DNA of 43,268 nucleotides, taken from positions 1 through 43,268 of the forward strand of contig JABGZB010000140.1 in the NCBI GenBank assembly GCA_018674955.1. The letters are read 5' to 3'. The DNA comes from Verrucomicrobiota bacterium (GTDB lineage Bacteria > Verrucomicrobiota > Verrucomicrobiia > Limisphaerales > UBA1096). A model generated the notes under the pieces. That model ran no database searches, was not told the DNA's origin, and worked only from the letters and a program-made list of their open reading frames with translations. A program made the position numbers and the translations under genes. Below are positions 1,975 to 42,229 of the stretch, in pieces. Each line of letters begins with the position of its first letter. The stretch's first letter is position 1.

Positions 1975-3396
1975 TTAGCGACCGGGGAATTTTGGAACTC
2001 CGCCAAGGTAGGGAAACTTGTCGAAGTCGGGCCCCTTGCCAGTGACTCTAGGGTCATTCGTTTTTTTCAGTTCAGAAAAAAGATGCGCCTTTAATCTTTT
2101 CACGGTCTCAGCATAGGCAGAATCGGCGGCGATATTCACCAGTTGATCGGGATCTTTCTTTAGATCGTATAATTCAGTAGCGGGGCGTTTTCCAAACGCC
2201 AACTCATAGAGCCTGCGATGATGGGCGTCCTTATCCCGGCTCTCAACCATGTAGGTTTTAGTCGGACCATTGTCACAGTCGCTGAACCAAGCCCCCTTAA
2301 TCGCCGCCTTTTTATAATTGGGCGTACCCGCCGGCCAACGGTCAGGGCGAAAGTTGTGGAGATACAGAAAGTCGTGAGTCCGAATGGCTCGAGTCGGGTA
2401 GCCACCCATATCCTTCCCTTCCTGGCCTGGCACATGCCGTTCCTTGCCATGTAGCACATAGCTTCGATCGCTCTTGTCATTACCCGCGAGGAGCGACAAC
2501 AGGCTCCGACCGGAAACATCACTTGGAACATCCAAATCTGCAGCCTGGTAGAACGTCGGCGCCACATCGACAAGGCTTACGAAATCGTTTACCACCGTTC
2601 CCTCTTTCACCTTCGACGGCCAACGAATTGCAAGCGGCACTCGGGCTCCACTGTCATAGTTGTTGCTCTTGCAGCGAGGGAACGGCATGCCGTGATCGCC
2701 CGTCATGACGACGATGGTGTTGTCGAGTTCACCACTCTCCTCAAGCGCTTTAATGGCGTCCCCCACCAAGCTGTCGAAACGTTGCACTTCAAAATAATAA
2801 TCCGCAACGTCGCTGCGGACTTCATTGGAACCCGGGAAATGCGCAAATAATTTAATTTTTGAAAGATCCATCCCGCTTTTCATCCCCGAACCCTTTGCGT
2901 AGCCGCGGTGTGGATCGGAACTGCCAAGCCAGTAACAGAACGGCTTACCACTTTGCCTGATTTTCATAAAGGCGCGGAAGTTTTTGTAACGAGGTCCCGC
3001 TAGTTGACGGCCTTTCTTTTGGGTGCGGCCTGGCCCCCACCCTTTGCTGCTAACACCAGTCACGTAACCGGCCTTCGCCAATCGTTCGGGATATGTATCA
3101 TACTTGTCAGGAAACACACTCCAGAGATTACCCGCACCTTCAAGTCGCCAATGCCATTGACCCGTCAGTATGGCACCGCGCGACGGCGTGCAGGACGGCG
3201 ATGACACGTAGGCGTGATGAAACAGTGCCCCCTCCTTGGCCAAGCGATCGAAGGTCGGTGTCCTGACTACGGGATCGCCGTACGAACCGGCATGTGGCCA
3301 ACCCCAATCGTCAGCAATGGCAAAAAGGATGTTCGGCCGCTCAGCCGAATGCAGGGAACAGGCAAACAGAAAAATCAGTTGTGACAAGAATTTCAT
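1975..3396 (-). CDS. Sulfatase (Cys-type)
   Basis: 473-aa ORF with a signal peptide. Motifs: PNILFAIADDWGW, SCTPSRGAILTGQW, TGDHGMPFPRCK, ELYDLKKDPDQ. Confidence 0.92.
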   Translation of the reverse strand: MKFLSQLIFLFACSLHSAERPNILFAIADDWGWPHAGSYGDPVVRTPTFDRLAKEGALFHHAYVSSPSCTPSRGAILTGQWHWRLEGAGNLWSVFPDKYDTYPERLAKAGYVTGVSSKGWGPGRTQKKGRQLAGPRYKNFRAFMKIRQSGKPFCYWLGSSDPHRGYAKGSGMKSGMDLSKIKLFAHFPGSNEVRSDVADYYFEVQRFDSLVGDAIKALEESGELDNTIVVMTGDHGMPFPRCKSNNYDSGARVPLAIRWPSKVKEGTVVNDFVSLVDVAPTFYQAADLDVPSDVSGRSLLSLLAGNDKSDRSYVLHGKERHVPGQEGKDMGGYPTRAIRTHDFLYLHNFRPDRWPAGTPNYKKAAIKGAWFSDCDNGPTKTYMVESRDKDAHHRRLYELAFGKRPATELYDLKKDPDQLVNIAADSAYAETVKRLKAHLFSELKKTNDPRVTGKGPDFDKFPYLGGVPKFPGR

Positions 3397-3465: not shown

Positions 3466-4839
3466 TTACTTTGGCGAAACCTCCTTCACCCAGTCGCTGT
3501 GCAGGGTCCTGAGGCGCTGCACGATTTCCGGTTTGGCCTTGGCATATTCCTTTGCCTCAGGCTTGGCATCGACCAGGTTTCGCAGCGACACCTTGGTGTT
3601 CCCGTTCGAGCCGATCAGTTTCCAGTCACCCTCGCGAACAGCCCATTTTTTGCCCCAGGCGAAATGTAGAATTTTGTATTTCGACTTCGCCTTGGCGCTT
3701 CGGATCAACGGTAACACGCTATGGCCATCTAGCTTTGGAGCGTTAGAGGGTTGCTGGACACCACAGAGGTCTAGCACAGTGGGAAACCAGTCCATTGCCG
3801 TGATGATTTCCCCACGCACCTTCCCCTTTGGCAGCTTGGCCGGGTAACTGATGATGGCCGGCACGCGCACACCACCCTCGAGAAAGCTGCCCTTCTGCCC
3901 GATCCACTTACCAGTGGACCCACCGCCGCTCGCGCCATAAAAATGGCCCTTGGGATAACCGCTCCTATGATTTTCCACTCTGATTCGATTGCCGGTTTCC
4001 TCCGAGTGCCCGTTGTCGCTCATGAAGATGATAGCCGTATTTTCGCGCAGGTCCAGCGCCTCCAATTTGTCGACAATCTGGCCGATATAGTGATCGGTCG
4101 TGCTGACAATGGCCGCGTAGGAGCGCCGTGCCGGGGCAGCAATGTCCTTGTACCTCGTCTCAAACTGCTTGAGCGCCTGCTCCGGATAATGCGGAATGTT
4201 AAACGGCACATAGAGTAAGAAAGGCCGATCCTTGTTTTGCATAATGAATTTCAATGAACGCTGCACCATCAGCTCAGGAAAATATTTACCCGGCGCCTTC
4301 ACTGGTTTGATCCCGTCGTACAAATCATGAAATCCACTGCCATGCAGGAAATAGTGATTGTAGTTGTCAATGAAACCGTCGCGAATGCCAAAGAACTCGT
4401 CGAAGCCCTGTTTCTTTGGCCCAAAATCCCGATGGGCTCCAAGGTGCCATTTCCCGAAGAGCGCGGTTCGATAACCGGCAGTCTTCAGTGCCTCGCCCAG
4501 CGTCACCTCCTCAAGAGCCATGTTGATACCGTCCGGTCCATTCATGTCGCCCTGCGTCCAGTGATGGACTCCACCCCGCTGCGGATGCCGCCCCGTCATC
4601 AACGCCGCTCGCGCCGGGCAACACACCGTGTGCGCATACGCCTGAGTGAACCGCACTCCCGTGGCCGCAAGTCTGTCGATATTGGGCGTCCTGAGGTCGG
4701 TGGAGCCATAGCAATTGGCATCAATCGTCCCCTGGTCGTCGGTCAAAATGATGAGGATGTTCGGCCGCTCCACCGCCGACACACCAAGTGCGGAGAAGAC
4801 CAGCAGGAGGATAATAATGTGCTTCACGCCGAGAACCAT
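3466..4839 (-). CDS. Sulfatase (Cys-type)
   Basis: The ORF track gives 3466..4878. The internal Met at 4839 (MVLGVKHIIILLLVFSALGVSA) gives a proper signal peptide, so it is preferred as the start. Motifs: PNILIILTDDQG, CCPARAALMTGRHP, MSDNGH. Confidence 0.88.
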   Translation of the reverse strand: MVLGVKHIIILLLVFSALGVSAVERPNILIILTDDQGTIDANCYGSTDLRTPNIDRLAATGVRFTQAYAHTVCCPARAALMTGRHPQRGGVHHWTQGDMNGPDGINMALEEVTLGEALKTAGYRTALFGKWHLGAHRDFGPKKQGFDEFFGIRDGFIDNYNHYFLHGSGFHDLYDGIKPVKAPGKYFPELMVQRSLKFIMQNKDRPFLLYVPFNIPHYPEQALKQFETRYKDIAAPARRSYAAIVSTTDHYIGQIVDKLEALDLRENTAIIFMSDNGHSEETGNRIRVENHRSGYPKGHFYGASGGGSTGKWIGQKGSFLEGGVRVPAIISYPAKLPKGKVRGEIITAMDWFPTVLDLCGVQQPSNAPKLDGHSVLPLIRSAKAKSKYKILHFAWGKKWAVREGDWKLIGSNGNTKVSLRNLVDAKPEAKEYAKAKPEIVQRLRTLHSDWVKEVSPK

Positions 4840-4909
4840 TTCGCAGAGAGGTAACGCCGTCAACCCACCGCAATGCAAATATGCGCGGACAGCCTGGTCA
4901 AGCGCACCC

Positions 4910-7900
4910 TCAGCCAGGATTTACATTAAACACCCCGTACATGGTCCTCCAATGCCCTGGGAACGTGCAGACAAACTCGTATTTCCCGGGCTTGACTGGA
5001 ACGTTGAAGGTTAGCAGTTCACTCTCGCCCGGCTTCAGTAGGCGGGTTGCTTGGAGAACTTTTTTGGATTCCGGGACATACCCCTTTTCCCATGCGCGGG
5101 GTTGCGTCGCCATCTCGTCGGCGGCGCGTCCCACCTCTTCGCGTGAGCCAATTGTCACCAGGACCAGGTTATGGGGCATGGTGTCGTTGTTTTCAAAAAT
5201 CAACCGGATCGACTCGCCAGCCGTGACATGGATTTCCTCCCGGTCATATTTCATCCGGGCCGGCACGGTTCGAATGATATGCACCGGGGCGCCGTATTGC
5301 CGAAGCTCAGTGCGCAGTGTCTGCCCCAACTCCTCCGGCAACCGACTCGCCGCCGCTTGGCCAAGCGACAGGGCCTCGATGCCGGCTTGGCCAACGCGCC
5401 GGTCAACCGGCATATCTTCCAAGTAACTCAACAGGTCTTGAGCCAGGCCGTTCATCTGGTCGCTTGGCCAAGTTTCCGCCGGCATCCGGTAAAGAGCCGT
5501 GATTGCATCTTCCGGATTCTCACCACGTTGCAACTGCTTGGCCAGTTGTTGAAAGTTCGGGCCGGGTGCGGCGGCGGGCTCCGGCCTGCCAGAGAGAAAC
5601 CCAAGCGTCTGCGCCAGCGCGTGCTCAATGCCGGGATCCATCGGGTGCACTGCGGCCTCCATGGCAATGGCAAGCGCCTCGGGGGATGCACTGAAACTTG
5701 CGGCGATAACGGCGTGCAAACGGACACGCGGTTCAGGGTCGTTGACCATCTGTCGAATGAGTTCATCGGCTGAGCCGATCTGTTCCTGCCAATACCTGAG
5801 CACCTTGGTCGCTGCAGCCCGGGCGCTGGGATTCGCGCTTTTCAACTGCTGCTGCAGCAGAACTGCATCGACCTCGTTCAAACCTTGGCGAACCCAAAGC
5901 GCCTCTGTCCGGTGATGCTCCCGTTCGGGATCGGTCGCCTTCAGGTTTTTCAGCCATTCGTCGAGAGCCGGGATTACCTTACCTGCCGGTCGCTGCTGAA
6001 GTTCCCGCCGGGCGAACTCACGGGTGCTGCTCTCGTGCGATTTCAGGAGGTCCAAAAGTGCGTTTACGGGTTCGCCCTTGATCCGAGGATGTTTCAGGAG
6101 GGGCCGGTCAGAATGAGATATGCGCCAGATGCGCCCGCGCCGATGATCCCGGCCGGGGTGCCGTTTTGAAAAGTTCACGTTCTCAAAAATTTGGGTATAA
6201 AAGTCGGCGATGTAGAGGGCGCCATCAGGCCCCAAGGCCATGGCCACCGGTCGAAAAAGCGGATCGTCGCATCGCAGCAAATGTCCGTGAGATTCGACCT
6301 GATAGACGGACCCGTTAGTTTTCAGGGTGTACCAGGCGGTGCCAGTTTCCCCGACGCAATGATTGACGAGGAAGCGGCCCTGAACTCCGGGCGGAAAATG
6401 CGTGCTAAACAGAAGCTCGCAGCCCGATGCAATATGTCCGCCGGAGTTGAAGGCGAGGTGATTGGTCCGATGCTTGGTCTTGGGATAAGTGAAGTTCGAG
6501 GAAAATACATCCATCGGATAATACTGCCCGGCAGAGGCGTCGAGCATAATGCCACCTCCCCAGCGGTCGAACAGGTTGCCGAACGGGTTCCAAAAACTGT
6601 GCGACACGTAGACCCCGAACCGGTGTCGCTCCGGCCGGTAACGAAACACCGCCGCGTCACGTACGCATGCTAGCCCGTAAGGTGTCTCGATCTGTGTGTG
6701 GTAAAAAATGCCCTGCGTGAAATAGAGTGATCCGCCCGGACTCCACCTGAAATTGTTCATCGCGTGTTCGGCGTCCTCAGCACCAAAACCATGCAACAGC
6801 ACCCGAACCCAGTCTGACTGACCGTCGTTGTCTGTATCACGCGCCAACACAAGATTGGGCGCCTGAGCCAGAAGCACTCCACCCTCCCCGAAACCGAACC
6901 CATGCAGCAGGTTCAAGTGATCGAGAAAAACAGTGTGCCTGTCTGCCACGCCATCACCGTCCTGATCCTCGAGAATCACAATCGAGTCATCAGGCTGTTT
7001 CCCCGGCAGCGGATGAGGCCAGGTGGGTGTGTTGCCCACCCACAAACGACCGCTCGAATCAAACTGAAGCGCCATCGGGTTCGCAATGGGAAAGTCCACC
7101 TCGGAGGCAAACAGATTGACCTGATAGCCCGACGCCACCTTCATCATCGCCAACTCTGTTTCCGGGGACTTGGCACGCCCAGGCTTCCCATCCTCCTTCA
7201 CAGCCCAGAGCGACTCGGGTACGTCACCGGAAATCGACCGGGATGCGGGTGTGGGAAACCAGATTGGCTTCCCGTCCACTGGAATCTTTCGCCAGATATC
7301 AGCCACTCGCGGTTTCTGCGTCTCCCAGATTTGACGCTCCATGTCCTCGACCAATTGACGGGATTGTTTGCGCTCGCTGCCGAGATGCTTTGATCCAGGG
7401 GTTTGGTTTCGTCGTCCATGAATATAAGAGGCATTCGGGGCGTGCCACCACAGTTGATGCCAATAGTTTTTCTCGTAAACCAGCCGCCGAAAGGCATCGG
7501 CTTCGGATGGATCGCCCTTGGCCTGCGATGCCGTCAAACCTTCCAGCAGGCCAAGTTGCTTTGCCATCATTCGGCTCACGACCTGGTAGCCGGATTCAGT
7601 GAGATGAATGCCGTTGAAGGTCAACCTGCCGCCCTGCCTCGATACCCGCTGTGCTGTTGCCGAAAACAAATCCACGGCGTGCACACCCGGTTGATTTGCG
7701 ACTTGGAGCAGTTCCTCCGAATAAACCTTCAAGTCGCCGTTTCGATCCGGAACATCCACCGTTGCCGACGAGTTCTCCTGGGCGATGGGAGTAACCAGCA
7801 CCACTCGGGGCGGAGAGTGCCCATTAAACTTTTCGCCTCGGAGTTGCTCCACAAAACTCTCGGTCTTGTGTCGGAAGTGCCCCACCTCTGCAATGCCATG

Positions 7901-8236
7901 AAACGATTCATTCATCCCGTAACAGACAAACACAATGTCAGCACGTTCCTCGCGCAACTCATCAGCCAGGCGAGGAAACCCCAATGGGCGAATCGACTCC
8001 CCCACCTCTTCCGCCGGCCAAGCCAGATACCGAATCCGCAGGCGGTGTTCCGGGAATCGGCTTTGCAGAAACGTCTCGAAATACCCGAAGAGATGCATCC
8101 TCTCGGCGAACGTGTTGCCGACGATCACAATGTGGTCGTTCTCCTTTATCTTTAGGTCGCCGGCCCGCGCTGCTGAAACAACCCACAGCAGAATAATTGC
8201 ACTGCAAACAAAAACAAAACGCATTTTAAAATTCAT
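4910..8236 (-). CDS. Secreted multidomain protein: SGNH-like domain + 'membrane-bound dehydrogenase'-type beta-propeller + HEAT repeats + C-terminal azurin-like cupredoxin
   Basis: 1108-aa ORF with signal peptide MNFKMRFVFVCSAIILLWVVSAARA. The N-terminal SGNH-like blocks are HIVIVGNTFAERM, YGMNES and NGIHLTESG. The propeller region (LWVGNTPTWPH, ILEDQDGDGVADR, DTDNDGQSD, FRWSPGGSLYF) resembles the Pirellula/Verrucomicrobium 'putative membrane-bound dehydrogenase' domain; that match is from memory of TIGR02604-type annotations. HEAT-like helices are present (DPEPRVRLHAVIAAS). The last ~126 aa (4913..5290) carry type-1 copper ligands, MPHN ... YEFVCTFPGHWRTMYG, with the same C-x4-H-x3-M spacing as azurin. 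The Cys codon is at 4967..4969. Confidence 0.8.
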   Translation of the reverse strand: MNFKMRFVFVCSAIILLWVVSAARAGDLKIKENDHIVIVGNTFAERMHLFGYFETFLQSRFPEHRLRIRYLAWPAEEVGESIRPLGFPRLADELREERADIVFVCYGMNESFHGIAEVGHFRHKTESFVEQLRGEKFNGHSPPRVVLVTPIAQENSSATVDVPDRNGDLKVYSEELLQVANQPGVHAVDLFSATAQRVSRQGGRLTFNGIHLTESGYQVVSRMMAKQLGLLEGLTASQAKGDPSEADAFRRLVYEKNYWHQLWWHAPNASYIHGRRNQTPGSKHLGSERKQSRQLVEDMERQIWETQKPRVADIWRKIPVDGKPIWFPTPASRSISGDVPESLWAVKEDGKPGRAKSPETELAMMKVASGYQVNLFASEVDFPIANPMALQFDSSGRLWVGNTPTWPHPLPGKQPDDSIVILEDQDGDGVADRHTVFLDHLNLLHGFGFGEGGVLLAQAPNLVLARDTDNDGQSDWVRVLLHGFGAEDAEHAMNNFRWSPGGSLYFTQGIFYHTQIETPYGLACVRDAAVFRYRPERHRFGVYVSHSFWNPFGNLFDRWGGGIMLDASAGQYYPMDVFSSNFTYPKTKHRTNHLAFNSGGHIASGCELLFSTHFPPGVQGRFLVNHCVGETGTAWYTLKTNGSVYQVESHGHLLRCDDPLFRPVAMALGPDGALYIADFYTQIFENVNFSKRHPGRDHRRGRIWRISHSDRPLLKHPRIKGEPVNALLDLLKSHESSTREFARRELQQRPAGKVIPALDEWLKNLKATDPEREHHRTEALWVRQGLNEVDAVLLQQQLKSANPSARAAATKVLRYWQEQIGSADELIRQMVNDPEPRVRLHAVIAASFSASPEALAIAMEAAVHPMDPGIEHALAQTLGFLSGRPEPAAAPGPNFQQLAKQLQRGENPEDAITALYRMPAETWPSDQMNGLAQDLLSYLEDMPVDRRVGQAGIEALSLGQAAASRLPEELGQTLRTELRQYGAPVHIIRTVPARMKYDREEIHVTAGESIRLIFENNDTMPHNLVLVTIGSREEVGRAADEMATQPRAWEKGYVPESKKVLQATRLLKPGESELLTFNVPVKPGKYEFVCTFPGHWRTMYGVFNVNPG

Positions 8237-9851: not shown

Positions 9852-10232
9852 AATTTTGAGTGCTAAAAAGACAAGCTAAGCAGGGTGCCGCAGGAATTCA
9901 ACACGACATCGGTAAATTATACGACCTGAAAAATAACATCGCCGAACCCCAGACGATCGGCATCGTGGGAACTCAGCCCAACGATTCAATGCAGGATTCG
10001 TTTCTGCACGAAGTGTTCCACACCGTGCACAATCCCGTTACCAGACGACGAACGTAGTTCTCATCGCTCTCAATTTCCCTCAGTTGCATCACATGACTCC
10101 GGCGGTCAGCTTCTCTGGCTCGTATGCTTTCGGTTCAACCATCAATCTTTATTTTGTAAGGCTGCAGGCATTTTGCGGCAACAGTTAAAACGCCTTGTAA
10201 ACTGCGTTCAACGGAGTGACAAATCCCTCTCT

Positions 10233-10298
10233 ATGAAATCAATTCTACTCACAATCGCAGCCGTGTTGCTGGTGGGGTGTGGCGAGGCTTTAAACTAA
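10233..10298 (+). pseudogene. 21-codon lipoprotein signal-peptide micro-ORF, probably the 5' relic of a disrupted lipoprotein gene
   Basis: ATG at 10233 reads MKSILLTIAAVLLVGCGEALN then TAA at 10296..10298. This is a complete lipobox signal (LVGC) with no mature protein behind it. It ends 7 nt before the GTG start of the next gene, which is in a different frame. Confidence 0.4.
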
Positions 10299-10305
10299 GC
10301 CCAAA

Positions 10306-10995
10306 GTGAAAACACCTTGTTCCAGTTGTAATCAACGCTTGGAGATACCCGAGGAACTAGCTGGGCAGACCATTGAGTGTCCTGCCTGTAATGCAAGTTT
10401 GGCTGTGCCCGCTATTGCTGCATCTAAGTCTGTACCAGCCCAAGTTCAACAGTCAGCACCACAAGCAGCTTCTAGTAAGAAATCTAAATCATCCGCACCC
10501 AAGTGGACCACCTTTCAATACGAAGCCATTAACCCCAAAAATTATAAGAATGAGAAGGGTGAACTGCCGGCTGCCAGCCAGGCCGATGCGTTGGCGCGGT
10601 TACATGAGATGGGTGTGAGTCCCGGTTTGGTGGAACAGGCCATGGCAACTGGTCGTCTAGCTGATAAGGCCAAGCGGGAACATTACGAGTTGCTGCGGCG
10701 GGAGAAGAAGAAATGGAATTGGACAACAAAACCCAAAAAGTTTTTGATAGGATTCGTCGGAACGATTGTTGTAGCAGAAGTATTTATGATCGGTCACCAA
10801 GCTGATTTTTTGGGCCACCTCTGTATAATCCTTTTCGGGATGCTAACTGGACTCATGGTTAGTCAATCGACTGACAAACCATCAACGCAATGGGCTTTGG
10901 CTTTTAAAGGCAAGAAGTTTGATTACTATGTGTTGCGGGATGCTACTGGTAAGCCCATCGAGACGATTGACCTACCAGAGAAATTAAACGAATAA
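10306..10995 (+). CDS. Hypothetical membrane protein with N-terminal zinc ribbon
   Basis: 229-aa ORF with a GTG start. CSSC...CPAC (CSSCNQRLEIPEELAGQTIECPACNASLAVP) is a 4-Cys zinc-ribbon pattern. It is followed by a low-complexity linker, a segment TFQYEAINPKNYKNEKGELPAASQADALARLHEMGVSPGLVEQ reminiscent of GspF/PilC N-terminal repeats, and a hydrophobic span FLIGFVGTIVVAEVFMIGHQADFLGHLCIILFGMLTGLMV. Confidence 0.6.
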   Translation: MKTPCSSCNQRLEIPEELAGQTIECPACNASLAVPAIAASKSVPAQVQQSAPQAASSKKSKSSAPKWTTFQYEAINPKNYKNEKGELPAASQADALARLHEMGVSPGLVEQAMATGRLADKAKREHYELLRREKKKWNWTTKPKKFLIGFVGTIVVAEVFMIGHQADFLGHLCIILFGMLTGLMVSQSTDKPSTQWALAFKGKKFDYYVLRDATGKPIETIDLPEKLNE

Positions 10996-11019
10996 CTGTG
11001 CTTACAGGCTGTGTCTCTA

Positions 11020-11085
11020 AAATTTACTCCACTTTTGAAGGAGGCCGTGTAATCGAAGGAAGAATTGTAAGCTGAAGGGAAATGA
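11020..11085 (+). pseudogene. Decayed 3'-end relic (copy A) of a gene ending ...KHGGKTGEELKAEGK*
   Basis: Reads KFTPLLKEAV*SKEEL*AEGK* with two in-frame stops. The core GAAGAATTGTAAGCTGAAGGGAAATGAAACA (11059..) matches copies B and C. The final stop is at 11083..11085, 90 nt after the stop of the preceding gene. Confidence 0.4.
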
Positions 11086-11126
11086 AACACCTCCTACTCT
11101 CTTGTTATCCGTGATACGAACCTCCC

Positions 11127-11894
11127 ATGACGCGCACGGTTCTAACCCTGACAACCTCGCCCCAGCGCATGCAGCATCTGCCCCTGGTGCTGGATGCACT
11201 GTTTAACCAGCTCACTTCGCCCGACGCTGTGTACCTCAACCTGCCGGAGCGCTATCGCAACCGTGATGCTTATATAATCCCCGATTGGCTAGGTGATGCG
11301 TTACAGGTGACCCTCCTGCGCCGGGTAGATGACCTGGGACCAGTGATGAAAATCCTACCGGTATTCGAAGTCGAAACAGATCCGGATACCCTCTTGATTA
11401 CTGTTGACGATGATGTCCGGTACCCTCCGGATACGATTTCGGCATTGCAAACCGCAGCTCAGGCACATCCGGAATCCGCTTTTGGCAGCAGGGGGTTTAA
11501 CTTTACAAATATCGGCCAACATCTGGAACCGGTACGAGGCAGCCATGCGTCCTGCCATGTTTTGCAAGGCTACGGGGCCTGCGCTTACCGGCGGCGGCAT
11601 TTCGACATCGAACGCCTGCACCTTAGCCTTGCCTCACAACCAGAAGCCTTTCGCTTCAGCGATGATGTCATTTTGTCGAACCACATTGCGTCAAGGGGCG
11701 TTGCCCGCTTCACCATTGAACTCACCAGTCGCCTGGAGCACATGCCCTGGGGGGACGAGGATTCACAGTCCTTGAAGTTTGTCGACGGTGGCACGCACCG
11801 GCGCTATGAAACGATGCGGCAATGGTTAATCAAAGAGGGTGAGTGGTTCGCGCAAGACCGGGCGGCAACACACGGGGCCAAAGACGAAAAATGA
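11127..11894 (+). CDS. Hypothetical protein, possibly a GT-A-like glycosyltransferase (DXD motif)
   Basis: 255-aa ORF with no signal peptide. The N-terminus TLTTSPQRMQHLPLVLDALFNQ followed by LLITVDDDVRYPPD (DxD-like) resembles the layout of nucleotide-sugar glycosyltransferases. The family assignment is not secure from sequence reading alone. Confidence 0.4.
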   Translation: MTRTVLTLTTSPQRMQHLPLVLDALFNQLTSPDAVYLNLPERYRNRDAYIIPDWLGDALQVTLLRRVDDLGPVMKILPVFEVETDPDTLLITVDDDVRYPPDTISALQTAAQAHPESAFGSRGFNFTNIGQHLEPVRGSHASCHVLQGYGACAYRRRHFDIERLHLSLASQPEAFRFSDDVILSNHIASRGVARFTIELTSRLEHMPWGDEDSQSLKFVDGGTHRRYETMRQWLIKEGEWFAQDRAATHGAKDEK

Positions 11895-11931
11895 TTAGCC
11901 TGGAACTTTGCGTGCCTACTTCTGTGCCCAA

Positions 11932-11997
11932 CCCTTTTTCCGCTATAGAAAACACAGCGGTAAGACGGGTGCAGAATTGAAAGCTGAAGGGAAATAG
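11932..11997 (+). pseudogene. 3'-end relic (copy B) of a gene ending ...KHGGKTGEELKAEGK*
   Basis: Reads PFFRYRKHSGKTGAELKAEGK* with TAG at 11995..11997, 103 nt after the stop of the preceding gene. There is no plausible start or upstream ORF body. Confidence 0.5.
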
Positions 11998-12105
11998 TGA
12001 CCTTTGGCCAAGCGCTTGGTTTTCAAAAAAATGGGTGGATTTCATGCTGATGAATTTTGCATCACTCCACTAATAATTTTATTCAGAGCTTGAGTTCAAC
12101 GGTGA

Positions 12106-13563
12106 ATGATTAAGAGTGGGCACGTGAACAAGAAATGGCCAACCATCCTCACGTTCTTTTTCCTTGTAGTCACTTCTTTCGCCGCTACGAAGAAATACAA
12201 TGTGCTCTTCATTATTTCTGATGACCTGACTTCCACCGCGTTGTCCTGTTATGGCAATACGGTCTGCAAAACACCGAATATCGATGCCCTTGCAGACAGA
12301 GGCACACGCTTCACCCGCACCTATTGTCAGGGCACCTATTGCGGTCCATCGCGTGCCTCATTTATGAGTGGCTATTATCCTCATGCGACGGGTGTGTTGA
12401 GATACAAGAGTCCGCGCCCACAGATTGGCACCCGAGCGACGTGGTCGCAGCATTTCAAGAATAACGGCTATCACTCCGCGCGCATCAGCAAGATCTATCA
12501 CATGGGTGTTCCCGGAGGCATTGAGCAGGGTGGTCATGGTGCCGATGACGCCGCTTCGTGGACCGAGCGTTTCAACAGCCCAGGCCCCGAATGGAAAGCC
12601 CCCGGTCAGGGTGAGACCCTGGAGGGCAATCCCGATGGCAAACGACCGGTCGTGGGCGGCAACACCTTTGTGGTAGTGGAAGCTGAAGGTGATGATTTGG
12701 TCCATTCAGATGGCAAAACTGCTGCGAAGGCCTGTGAACTACTGGCGGAGTATGCAAAACGGCAGAAGCCGTTCTTTCTGGGCGTAGGCTTTGTTCGCCC
12801 GCATGTGCCGTTTGTGGCACCAGAAAAATATTATCCACCCTTTCTGCCGTACTCAAAAATGAAACTGCCACACAAGTTTGAAGGAGACTGGGATGACATA
12901 CCCAAGCCAGGCATTAACTACAAAACCAGTGTGAACATGAAGATGGATGTTCGACGTCAAAAGAAGGCCGTAGGTGGCTACTACGCCTCGGTGAGTTTCA
13001 TGGATGCGCAGGTGGGCAAGGTGCTGACTGCGCTAAAAAAGGCTGGGCTGGAGGATGACACGATTGTGATTTTCACAAGCGACCATGGCTTTCACCTGGG
13101 CGAGCACGATTTTTGGGCCAAGGTGAGTTTGCTCGATGAATCCTCACAGGTACCGCTCATCATCAGAGTACCCGGCAAGAAACCCGCCGTATGTCATTCG
13201 TTGACCGAGCTGCTTGACCTTTATCCCACCGTTTCTGCCCTCTGCGGTCTGCCCACCCAATCGCGACTGCAGGGTAAGGATATCTCCAAAATGCTTGATG
13301 ACCCCAAGCACACCGTGCGCACTGCCGCCTTTTCCGTAGCCCCTATGCGCAGCGGCTTTCTTTTACGTGAGGATGAGTGGGCCTACATCCAGTACGGAGA
13401 AAATGGTGCTAAAGGCATTGAGCTCTACAACATAAAAAAGGATCCGCACCAGTACACCAGCCTAGCTCAACATCCTGCCCACCAAGAAACCGTGGCTCGC
13501 TTCAAGGCCCAGATGACAGGCAAGCTGCGGAACATCCGCAACAACGATCTCAAGGGGAACTGA
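12106..13563 (+). CDS. Sulfatase (Cys-type, iduronate-2-sulfatase-like)
   Basis: 485-aa ORF with a signal peptide. Motifs: YNVLFIISDDL, YCGPSRASFMSGYYP, GVGFVRPHVPF, TSDHGFHLGEH. It is a paralogue of 26625..28112, sharing the GFVRPH(V/L)PF and GDHGWHLG-type blocks. Confidence 0.92.
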   Translation: MIKSGHVNKKWPTILTFFFLVVTSFAATKKYNVLFIISDDLTSTALSCYGNTVCKTPNIDALADRGTRFTRTYCQGTYCGPSRASFMSGYYPHATGVLRYKSPRPQIGTRATWSQHFKNNGYHSARISKIYHMGVPGGIEQGGHGADDAASWTERFNSPGPEWKAPGQGETLEGNPDGKRPVVGGNTFVVVEAEGDDLVHSDGKTAAKACELLAEYAKRQKPFFLGVGFVRPHVPFVAPEKYYPPFLPYSKMKLPHKFEGDWDDIPKPGINYKTSVNMKMDVRRQKKAVGGYYASVSFMDAQVGKVLTALKKAGLEDDTIVIFTSDHGFHLGEHDFWAKVSLLDESSQVPLIIRVPGKKPAVCHSLTELLDLYPTVSALCGLPTQSRLQGKDISKMLDDPKHTVRTAAFSVAPMRSGFLLREDEWAYIQYGENGAKGIELYNIKKDPHQYTSLAQHPAHQETVARFKAQMTGKLRNIRNNDLKGN

Positions 13564-13583
13564 AAACCAGATTGCGCACTGTC

Positions 13584-13664
13584 ATTAAAAACCTCGTCAT
13601 GTCCGACCTCTTCCGCAAACACGGCGGTAAGACGGGTGAAGAATTGAAAGCTGAAGGGAGATGA
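13584..13664 (+). pseudogene. 3'-end relic (copy C) of a gene ending ...KHGGKTGEELKAEGK*
   Basis: Reads IKNLVMSDLFRKHGGKTGEELKAEGR* with TGA at 13662..13664, 101 nt after the sulfatase stop. It is the best-preserved copy. There is no upstream gene body. Confidence 0.55.
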
Positions 13665-13718
13665 AACAACTTTGTCTCAGGTATCGCACCCAAGTCATAC
13701 CAGCCGCTTGGCCAAACA

Positions 13719-41497: not shown

Positions 41498-42229
41498 TTA
41501 TTGCATTGGTTTATGATTCTCATACCACGAGAGGTTTCTGTCGATGTAGTACTGGTTTTTGTACTCATAGTGAAGATCGGCAAAAGTTATGTTGTTGCCA
41601 CCTTTACTTTGCTTGTTCGGCCTGTTGTTTTTTCCCGAGTTGTGGCGGGCATAGCGTTCATTTGGAGGATTAGTCGTTTGCCCTGCTGGGTGTGGGCCAC
41701 TGGCATTGTAGACCCGCTCGTGATCCCAGAATGGTACGACCATGTAATTGGCACACGCAAATAAAAGGATCTTGTCCGGCACCGGTACTTGACTGATTTT
41801 CTTGTACTTGATGTTGGCCGGGCCAACCAGTTGCTCACTGGCACCATATGAAAAAACAATGTCCCGGGTCCTGTTTCCGATCTTGATGGTTCTTTTCCGG
41901 AAGTCGAACGAATTGTGGGATCCTTCAACATCGGCGGGATCGCTGAACAAATCCATGGTACTGAGATAGCCCACCTCGTGCATAATAACCAACCAGTTGG
42001 CGTGCTGCTGTGTAGAACCAGCTAATGAGAGAGGGAACTTTCCTTCAAAATCCTCTGCATACATTGCCATAGTCAGGCCAAGTTGTTTTTGGTTGCTCAT
42101 GCAGACCGTTTGTCGGGCTTTGCTCTTGGCCCTGCCCAGGGCGGGAAGCAGTAGGCTGGCCAGGATGGCAATGATGGCGATGACAACCAACAGTTCGATG
42201 AGGGTGAATCCAGTTTGCTTCGTTTTCAT
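41498..42229 (-). CDS. Prepilin-type N-terminal cleavage/methylation domain protein (type II secretion pseudopilin-like, PVC family)
   Basis: 243-aa ORF. The N-terminus [38 protein letters not shown] is the canonical prepilin leader plus hydrophobic helix. The C-terminal RHNSG...[11 protein letters not shown] resembles the H-X9-DG-type end of this family. Confidence 0.88.

Follow-up and report, generated by a model that had tools for sequence, protein, structure and literature searches.

We analysed a stretch of 43,268 nucleotides (nt) from a Verrucomicrobiota bacterium (contig JABGZB010000140.1 of assembly GCA_018674955.1), here called the window, in which short coding remnants lie among three consecutive plus-strand genes for a zinc-ribbon membrane protein (gene 1), a distantly GT2-like protein (gene 2) and a sulfatase (gene 3). 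An earlier note on this DNA, made from its letters alone, had described three decayed copies of one gene tail, each downstream of an unrelated gene, and an orphan lipoprotein signal before the first gene. The remnants belong to a family of small lipoproteins that run from a head (MK..LLTTIAAVLLVGCG) through an ankyrin body to a tail (..LLRKHGGKTGEELKAEGK*, the asterisk marking a stop codon). Outside this locus the window is a sulfatase-rich region of the Planctomycetes-Verrucomicrobia-Chlamydiae type.

A decayed four-slot array

Positions 10140-13690 of the window are a decayed four-slot array of genes of this family. Read in order on the plus strand, the locus consists of a leader, head 0, tail 0, gene 1, tail A with an adjoining relic of head A, gene 2, tail B, a second leader, the sulfatase gene, and tail C with an adjoining relic of head C, so that four tails and three heads survive, in differing states of decay. 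No ankyrin-repeat body lies in one frame between any head and tail among the large open reading frames (ORFs) of the window, in agreement with the note's claim that the tails lack a gene body. Each of the four slots being a relic, what the window preserves of the family is remnants and no intact member.

The three tails described before lie at their claimed places, and share the core GAAGAATTG(A/T)AAGCTGAAGGGA(A/G)AT. The 43 kb contain this core only three times, at 11059-11083, 11971-11995 and 13638-13662; in 100 shuffles the number of matches expected by chance was 0. Tails B and C are identical at 43 of 46 nt, while tail A is at 67%. An independent nhmmer profile of the junction between a tail and the following head, trained only on junctions from genomes other than the window's, gave four matches in the window and no more (E 6e-9 to 4e-24), and with the shuffles it establishes that the similarity among the tails is significant. 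The translations, KEEL*AEGK* for tail A and ..RKHSGKTGAELKAEGK and ..DLFRKHGGKTGEELKAEGR for the other two, are those reported, and the distance from the gene stop to the end of the tail stop is 90 nt (10995 to 11085), 103 nt (11894 to 11997) and 101 nt (13563 to 13664), which is the spacing of 90-103 nt given before. The tails do follow the genes, as the note had it; they are, however, halves of tail-head junctions and not 3' appendages of the preceding genes. New in our analysis are the relics of the next heads after tails A and C, the ~95-nt leader before the orphan head and a fourth tail core.

The first leader (10140-10233; ..GGCAACAGTTAAAACGCCTTGTAAACTGCGTTCAACGGAGTGACAAATCCCTCTCT) stands directly before the ATG of the orphan head and is of the same kind as the leader of 12 other loci described below. 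Head 0 (10234-10299; nhmmer match 10233-10290, profile positions 74-134, E 6e-9) is the 21-codon ORF of the earlier note, MKSILLTIAAVLLVGCGEALN*, which encodes a complete lipoprotein signal, lipobox included, but lacks a body. The very decayed fourth tail core (GCGAGGCTTTAAACTAAGCCCAAAG) lies at 10283-10305, directly against the GTG of gene 1, and was recognized in a three-way alignment with two of the 116 loci fetched from databases (designated by L-numbers): L130 has the same orphan head, spacer and zinc-ribbon start, also decayed, and thus the same arrangement of orphan head and zinc-ribbon gene, and L062 has an intact tail, ATGA and zinc-ribbon start. Together the orphan head and tail 0 make up a decayed head-to-tail 'empty slot'.

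Gene 1 (10306-10995, GTG start) encodes 229 amino acids (aa), an N-terminal zinc ribbon with a weak match to Pfam Zn_ribbon followed by an unrelated C-terminal two-thirds with transmembrane segments. Its first 84 aa are 51% identical to a 297-aa protein at L130:5534-6427, composed of zinc ribbon, transmembrane segment, ankyrin and tail. Gene 1 is thus half family, its zinc-ribbon N-terminus being the alternative head of a family-type protein elsewhere. The description of three unrelated genes accordingly holds for gene 2 and the sulfatase, which are non-family, but not for the N-terminus of gene 1.

Tail A (11058-11085; nhmmer 11058-11099, profile 50-91, E 1e-10) retains the core only (GAAGAATTGTAAGCTGAAGGGAAATGA) and carries an in-frame TAA. 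Its stop overlaps by ATGA the relic of head A (11082-11114), a 10-codon ORF, MKHLLLSCYP*, the first 18 nt of which are the consensus head ATGAAACACCTCCTACTC; junction A therefore keeps 27 nt of tail, the ATGA and 18 nt of head. The overlap reads GGGAAATGAAACA at 11077-11089, and its counterpart at junction C reads GGGAGATGAAACA at 13657-13669. Family homology of head A stops at ~11099, and the native upstream sequence of gene 2 starts at 11097-11101; metatranscriptome contigs break at 11097-11099. Gene 2 (11127-11894, 255 aa) has no Pfam match of its own, and its distant homologues carry PF00535.

Tail B (11934-11997; nhmmer 11934-11995, profile 20-75, E 6e-14) is a full block with a 6-nt in-frame insertion, ..FFRYRKHSGKTGAELKAEGK, and ends in TAG. 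The sulfatase leader follows (11998-12105), with the palindrome CCAAGCGCTTGG and a T/A run at 12003-12027, and then the 485-aa iduronate-2-sulfatase-like gene (12106-13563; Pfam Sulfatase). Tail C (13595-13664; nhmmer 13595-13688, profile 8-103, E 4e-24) is the best preserved, ..MSDLFRKHGGKTGEELKAEGR, with a TGA stop. By an ATGA overlap it passes into the relic of head C (13661-13690; ATGAAACAACT..ATCGCA..; MKQL..), which the junction profile also covers and which runs into the 3' end of a convergent DUF1552 gene. A palindromic motif, GGCCAAGCG(C/G)(T/C)TGG, is present at 12003-12020 (6 nt after tail B) and 13699-13716 (35 nt after tail C), and L114 has a similar one behind a tail that ends in TAA; the 3' flank of the family may thus include this motif as well.

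The whole arrangement is reproduced at >99% identity in 12 independently assembled contigs, so that an assembly artefact or chimera is unlikely. We compared the locus among 10 strain variants. Gene 1 is intact in nine of them and carries W136* in L007; gene calls that made it look broken in several strains were rejected, as the short calls stem from its GTG start. A 96-nt deletion (window 10144-10239), with the microhomology ATCAAT at its ends, has taken away the leader together with the orphan head's ATG in three of the ten (L002, L006 and L009), and L001 has a run of N at the same site; the leader is thus dispensable here. Position 13611 in tail C is T or C, the C (6 of 10 variants) being the family consensus, and position 11069, within the in-frame TAA of tail A, is A or G. 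Apart from the array, by ~2 kb, one strain (L008:3116-6050, the orthologue of window 4910-8236) has a 1108-aa GDSL/DUF7133/HEAT/cupredoxin gene cut to 381 aa, with strain-specific ORFs of 158 and 237 aa that have no Pfam match in place of the lost part.

No integrase, transposase or other recombinase domain was found in any large ORF of the 43-kb window, as the earlier note had stated. The lower GC content that it reported is real but mild (0.475-0.535 against 0.57-0.59 just upstream), and other parts of the window are equally low.

A multicopy family with conserved junctions

The note had attributed these N- and C-termini to a multicopy family of small ankyrin-repeat lipoproteins, and had named the search for intact members as a check. 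Such a family exists. A composite head-plus-tail protein query retrieved 29 proteins, and a pattern scan over one genome per species of the Genome Taxonomy Database (GTDB) complemented it. Typical members are intact proteins of 76-86 aa, MK(H/Q/S)..LL.TIAAVLLVGCG followed by one ankyrin repeat and a ..(A/T)DLLRKHGGKTGEELKAEGK tail (KHGGKTGEELKAEGK motif), the C-terminus ..L(L/F)RKHGGKTGEELKAEGK* being encoded by conserved tail DNA. In tandem arrays, taken from the contigs encoding query matches and from the species-level scan, members span 78 to 473 aa. Some of the 29 have a hydrophobic, non-ankyrin body between the same two ends, two (P0027 and P0029) are intact 26-aa fusions of head to tail, with another such fusion in L132, and one reads through from its tail into the next head. 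The family is multicopy, real and tandem-arrayed in metagenome-assembled genomes (MAGs) of marine Verrucomicrobiota. No description of the family or its motif was found in the literature searched.

Where the contig exceeds 10 kb, nearly every host MAG bears the label Verrucomicrobia(e/ota), Pedosphaera, Limisphaerales or Opitutales. Labels of other phyla (Kiritimatiellia, Pirellulales, Dehalococcoidia, Flavobacteriales, Acidimicrobiales, Nitrospiraceae, Bacteroidetes and SAR324) stand mostly on short family-positive contigs of, for the most part, 0.6-13 kb (L027, L031, L039, L043/L051, L049, L079, L085, L113, L121, L131 and others). Many family contigs of 600-900 nt are binned into unrelated phyla, and L147 ends exactly at the leader of the window (window 10200). 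The odd labels probably reflect mis-binning driven by the repeat. In a viral collection the tail occurs on a single contig, L019 (IMGVR_UViG_3300031841_005892), in a 261-aa family gene. Metatranscriptome contigs show a depth of 117-1556 on head and tail stretches against ~10 on genes; the pile-up attests only to the presence of a multicopy family in RNA libraries and cannot locate transcript ends.

In the live arrays a gene ends ..GAAGGGAAATGA and the next begins at that very ATG (ATGA overlap; ..GAAGGGAAATGAAACA..). Because stop and start overlap, the closing ~65 nt of a gene and the opening ~55 nt of its successor form one junction. This tail-head junction of ~125 nt is near-invariant in DNA, synonymous sites included, across many MAGs, and the bodies have diverged. 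The frequency of the majority base over the last 60 nt is 0.95, 0.94 and 0.91 at codon positions 1, 2 and 3, against 0.45-0.55 just upstream, figures that are biased by the search pattern; five tails ascertained by protein similarity alone are also identical, AAGACGGGTGAAGAATTGAAA. The ATGA junction was seen in dozens of other loci.

A second type of junction consists of TAG- or TAA-terminated tails followed by a leader of ~95 nt (..GGCAACAGTTAAAACGCCTTGAAAACTGCGCTCAACGGGGTGACGGT..ATGAAATCA) with the promoter-like layout TTGAAA-N17-GAYRRT (TTG(A/T)AA-N17-GAYRRT for the leader at 10140-10233). In 12 loci of other genomes this leader stands before an MKS-type head or behind a TAG-terminated tail. 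The leader may serve as a promoter and the core of the tail as a translation-start region.

Across the fetched loci the junction profile gave 194 matches in 74 of 116, and the match starts cluster: 85 at the full tail, ~33 at a truncated core (about -30 or -42 from the stop) and 34 at a head only. About 25 truncated tails elsewhere lie in open frames of 10-45 codons. The order seen in the window, with an unrelated gene, ~100 nt and then a relic tail, recurs in L076 and L025. Family heads also serve as signal peptides of other proteins, namely a sulfatase (L062), an 854-aa DUF7133/cytochrome c protein (L025) and a GH16 protein (L141). At L130:6436-6858 the reading frame of a 140-aa non-family protein with multiple transmembrane segments continues into the tail core (..SRELKAEGK*), and its end shares an ATGA with the start of the next family gene; here a foreign gene and the tail form a live fusion. 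Tails are often followed at the ATGA by prepilin-type genes (MK..FTLIEL). The window has a prepilin-type N_methyl/DUF1559 gene of its own (41498-42229, minus strand), which has no family element upstream. In L075, from the Verrucomicrobiae MAG FRAM bin38, a family array has two Phage_integrase ORFs and one primase-like (DUF5906) ORF as direct neighbours (2515-3207, 3978-5348 and 7472-7999); these ORFs may belong to an integrated element that uses or abuts the array.

Gene 2, the sulfatase and a close relative

We examined where orthologues of the non-family genes lie in other genomes. Gene 2 occurs in at least five genomic contexts among relatives at 81-92% identity (L135-L142), only two of which have family elements. 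Homologues of 81% and 65% identity stand at the end of a MoxR-DUF58-BatA-ABC operon without family sequence, and those of 84-90% identity in three further contexts. The nucleotide homology ends within ~30 nt of the ORF ends; BLAST blocks with the loci of other context start at 11097-11101, and the breakpoints 11097-11101, 11117 and 11898 do not fall at a single position. Gene 2 is a newcomer in slot 2. Orthologues of the sulfatase at 83-85% identity lie in a tightly packed BNR_4-sulfatase-PSCyt operon, and one of 77% in a complete genome, in both cases without relics. An ankyrin gene (P0023) upstream of a 485-aa sulfatase in L011, considered as the intact ancestor of tail B, was rejected, as that sulfatase is not orthologous (~24% identity).

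The closest relative found, represented by two independent assemblies (L141 and L142), has a sulfatase of 91% aa identity together with the orthologous tail B, leader, spacer and tail C. The shared block extends from tail B through the ATGAAAC after tail C, and just outside it identity is 41-45%, so that the homology stops inside junction elements. The two loci differ in what surrounds this block. Upstream of the sulfatase, in place of gene 2, L141 has a family-type gene (head, 180-aa ORF, ankyrin-like last repeat and tail), preceded by a one-repeat ankyrin pseudogene. Gene 2 follows the sulfatase there, and after it come a tail-head junction, whose head is the GH16 signal peptide, and a junction core before an MR_MLE gene; a decayed prepilin-type N-terminus occupies the place homologous to head C. 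As relics flank the 91% orthologue but none of those at 77-85%, the sulfatase took up its family slot before the window and L141 lineages parted.

The comparison of loci in relatives, which the earlier note had proposed, thus found a permuted gene order and a shared block bounded by junction elements. Since the orthologues elsewhere lie in conserved contexts without family sequence, and given the slots of L141, the foreign genes are the newcomers and the family elements the resident scaffold. This supports the note's suggestion that bodies were replaced by foreign genes and the ends retained.

Within the shared block, window and L141 are 67% identical in tail B, 66% in tail C, 76% at third codon positions of the sulfatase and 85% in the sulfatase leader, in which the palindrome stays paired because C-G has become T-A. 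Conservation of the relics falls below that of synonymous sites and of the leader; the tails are therefore not kept for the sake of the neighbouring genes.

Proposed exchange at the junctions and its rivals

We read positions 10140-13690 as the wreck of a tandem, translationally coupled head-ankyrin-tail array whose contents were swapped, and put the probability of this reading at about 0.62. Recombination or gene conversion at the junctions would be the engine. Junction repeats of 60-125 nt, >90% identical and present in many copies per genome, would be substrates for homologous recombination and gene conversion, which would keep the ends uniform and reshuffle what lies between them. The dispensable bodies would then offer permissive, expression-ready landing sites in which captured genes are retained: a gene landing in a body would inherit the promoter-like leader, the start region and sometimes a signal peptide. 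Slot 0 has lost its body, with head fused to tail core; slot 1 retains the zinc-ribbon family head with a foreign C-terminal part, slot 2 contains gene 2 and slot 3 the sulfatase. A role of the conserved ends as recombination substrates fits the ending of the sulfatase block inside junction elements.

Several observations weigh against this reading. No recombination event was directly observed, as the 12 strain-level contigs have the same content and differ only by the 96-nt deletion; an exact-match metagenome scan of the left flank, made for polymorphism of slot content, returned two contigs, both collinear with the window. The gene 2 block has its edges not within the junction elements but 10-40 nt away, and gene 2 is found in contexts without family sequence too, so that some capture steps must have been illegitimate recombination or another process. 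Truncated tails of other genomes begin preferentially ~30 or ~42 nt ahead of the stop, as a rule directly against an intact start codon downstream; this clustering suggests that the core was selected as a start region rather than left by random decay. The orthologous relics are near-consensus in the window and heavily decayed in L141, which suggests conversion from intact paralogues or unequal rates. Finally, the loci were collected by an exact 20-nt pattern, and the estimate of conservation is biased within and beside it, at -57 to -7.

The clustering of truncated cores also underlies the best of the rivals, namely that the core (some 30 nt at the end of the tail, GGTGAAGAATTGAAAGCTGAAGGGAAATG) acts chiefly in translation initiation or coupling for the next gene, which overlaps by ATGA, and that relics are kept for the downstream genes and not as recombination substrates. 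Core-only relics elsewhere indeed sit on the start codon of an intact downstream gene, be it a family head, a prepilin-type or a zinc-ribbon gene, and in the window the mini-ORF of head 0 stops 7 nt ahead of gene 1, that of head A 12 nt ahead of gene 2. We nevertheless consider the explanation unlikely. Tail B is 108 nt from the next start, and beyond tail C there is no further cistron, only a convergent gene; the conserved stretch, ~65 nt of tail and ~55 nt of head, is longer than a ribosome footprint; and relics B and C have diverged from L141 beyond third codon positions. Coupling can account for some relics having been kept, but leaves the array and the replaced genes unaccounted for.

Less likely still, in our estimate, is that a site-specific cassette system, integron-like or other and with its recombinase elsewhere in the genome, uses the junctions for attachment. 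The array resembles integron cassette arrays and CALINs (attC clusters without integrase) in its one-gene units of one orientation, the repeated element between them, a unit order that differs between relatives and the borrowing of upstream expression signals by the units; the ends of the sulfatase block inside repeats, the 'empty slot' fusions and the two integrase ORFs beside the array of L075 can be counted on the same side. The window repeat, however, is a coding 3' end plus the next coding 5' end, functional coding sequence in intact members, and not a non-coding attC. No Phage_integrase domain that could mark an integron integrase (IntI) is present among the large ORFs of the window. Integron crossover occurs at a fixed point, the GTT in R' of attC. 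The breakpoints seen here are irregular: the relics are truncated at differing points, as at junction A, and the edges of gene 2 fall at no fixed junction position. The imperfect inverted-repeat hairpin of attC was absent from the consensus junction on either DNA strand (folding z = +0.10 and -0.30); RNAalifold on 11 junctions found 0 compensatory pairs and a positive covariation term (+0.99), and the junction as RNA gave no significant hairpin either (z for DNA and RNA, -0.3 to +0.1). A long-range stem between tail and head (CACGGCGGC with GCAGCCGTG, CTCCTCC with GGTGGGG) was rejected, having neither compensatory change nor an energy excess over shuffles. An inverted-repeat search yielded chance-level pairs only, plus the palindrome common to the stretches after tails B and C, and a check of the locus for a transposable element or miniature inverted-repeat transposable element found no terminal inverted repeats, target-site duplication or transposase.

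Decay in place of three or four family genes among genes that were always resident, with no replacement or capture, would suit an abundant family in which pseudogenes are common, and the about neutral evolution of the relic tails between window and L141. It is very improbable, since the places of the orthologues go most of the way to refuting it: in more distant relatives gene 2 and the sulfatase have different, conserved, relic-free contexts, the head relic is joined directly to the native upstream sequence of gene 2 at 11097-11101, and the slot of L141 that matches the window slot of gene 2 holds a family-type gene.

The proposal, in part that of the earlier note, that the repeat is a functional 3' untranslated region, terminator or structured RNA of the preceding genes has in its favour the constant distance from stop to tail and the small conserved palindrome with its T-run after tail B, and was not borne out: a scan for promoters and terminators found nothing at the relics and did not call the palindrome, which belongs to the sulfatase leader and not to the repeat; RNA folding of the relics was within the range of shuffles (z -0.28, -0.99 and +0.42, a range of -1.0 to +0.4), with no covariation; and Rfam over the window gave only an AdoCbl-II match at 12028-12085 on the minus strand, taken as chance at 19 bits against a gathering score of 36.5. 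With no structure, Rfam match or recombinase in the window, and relics that decay at least as fast as synonymous sites and are coding in intact genes, we reject the untranslated-region, terminator and attC readings, the first two being the least credible explanations of all.

The swapped-array reading can also be set beside other systems in which conserved ends flank variable parts. The orphan or displaced toxin-immunity modules of rhs and cdiA likewise keep conserved coding fragments beside unrelated downstream modules, and these fragments are thought to let homologous recombination swap the variable part. Their conserved piece, however, precedes the variable C-terminal toxin tip of the same protein. 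In the window family conservation holds at the signal peptide as well as at the C-terminal tail, and complete unrelated genes, each with a start and a stop of its own, take the place of the entire body. The vlp, vsp and vsa families of Mycoplasma are clustered lipoprotein genes with a near-identical 5' leader and signal-peptide coding region and divergent mature parts, but vary by site-specific inversion or slipped-strand change within the family; the window family in addition conserves the 3' tail, overlaps by ATGA and has slots that hold non-family enzymes. In Neisseria pilE/pilS, conserved DNA at the ends of the variable cassettes (Sma/Cla repeats) provides the homology for RecA-dependent gene conversion. 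There the pilS cassettes are promoterless fragments of one gene and serve antigenic variation, while the slot units are complete expressed genes of many kinds, with no evident expression locus.

A bolder interpretation, which we hold only tentatively, is that the tail-ATGA-head junction is a dedicated docking module, a cassette system within the coding sequence of marine Verrucomicrobiota. Secreted and surface enzymes and proteins (sulfatases, GH16, DUF7133, pilin-like) might conceivably be plugged into slots that give promoter, start and signal peptide, and be moved between slots and genomes. Such exchange, if it occurs, could perhaps proceed via junction homology or a recombinase not yet recognised.

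The ankyrin-lipoprotein family and its slot phenomenon are widespread in marine Verrucomicrobiota and apparently undescribed. As contigs break at head and tail sequences, the family is likely a source of fragmented and contaminated MAGs. The invariance of ~125 nt of coding DNA at synonymous sites, beside freely diverging bodies, calls for an explanation such as concerted evolution or a function at the level of the nucleic acid. Marine Verrucomicrobiota are major degraders of sulfated polysaccharides, with genomes crowded with sulfatases; if this hyper-abundant family supplies recombination-prone, expression-ready slots, it would provide a route for the shuffling of these enzymes, their acquisition of signal peptides and their spread.

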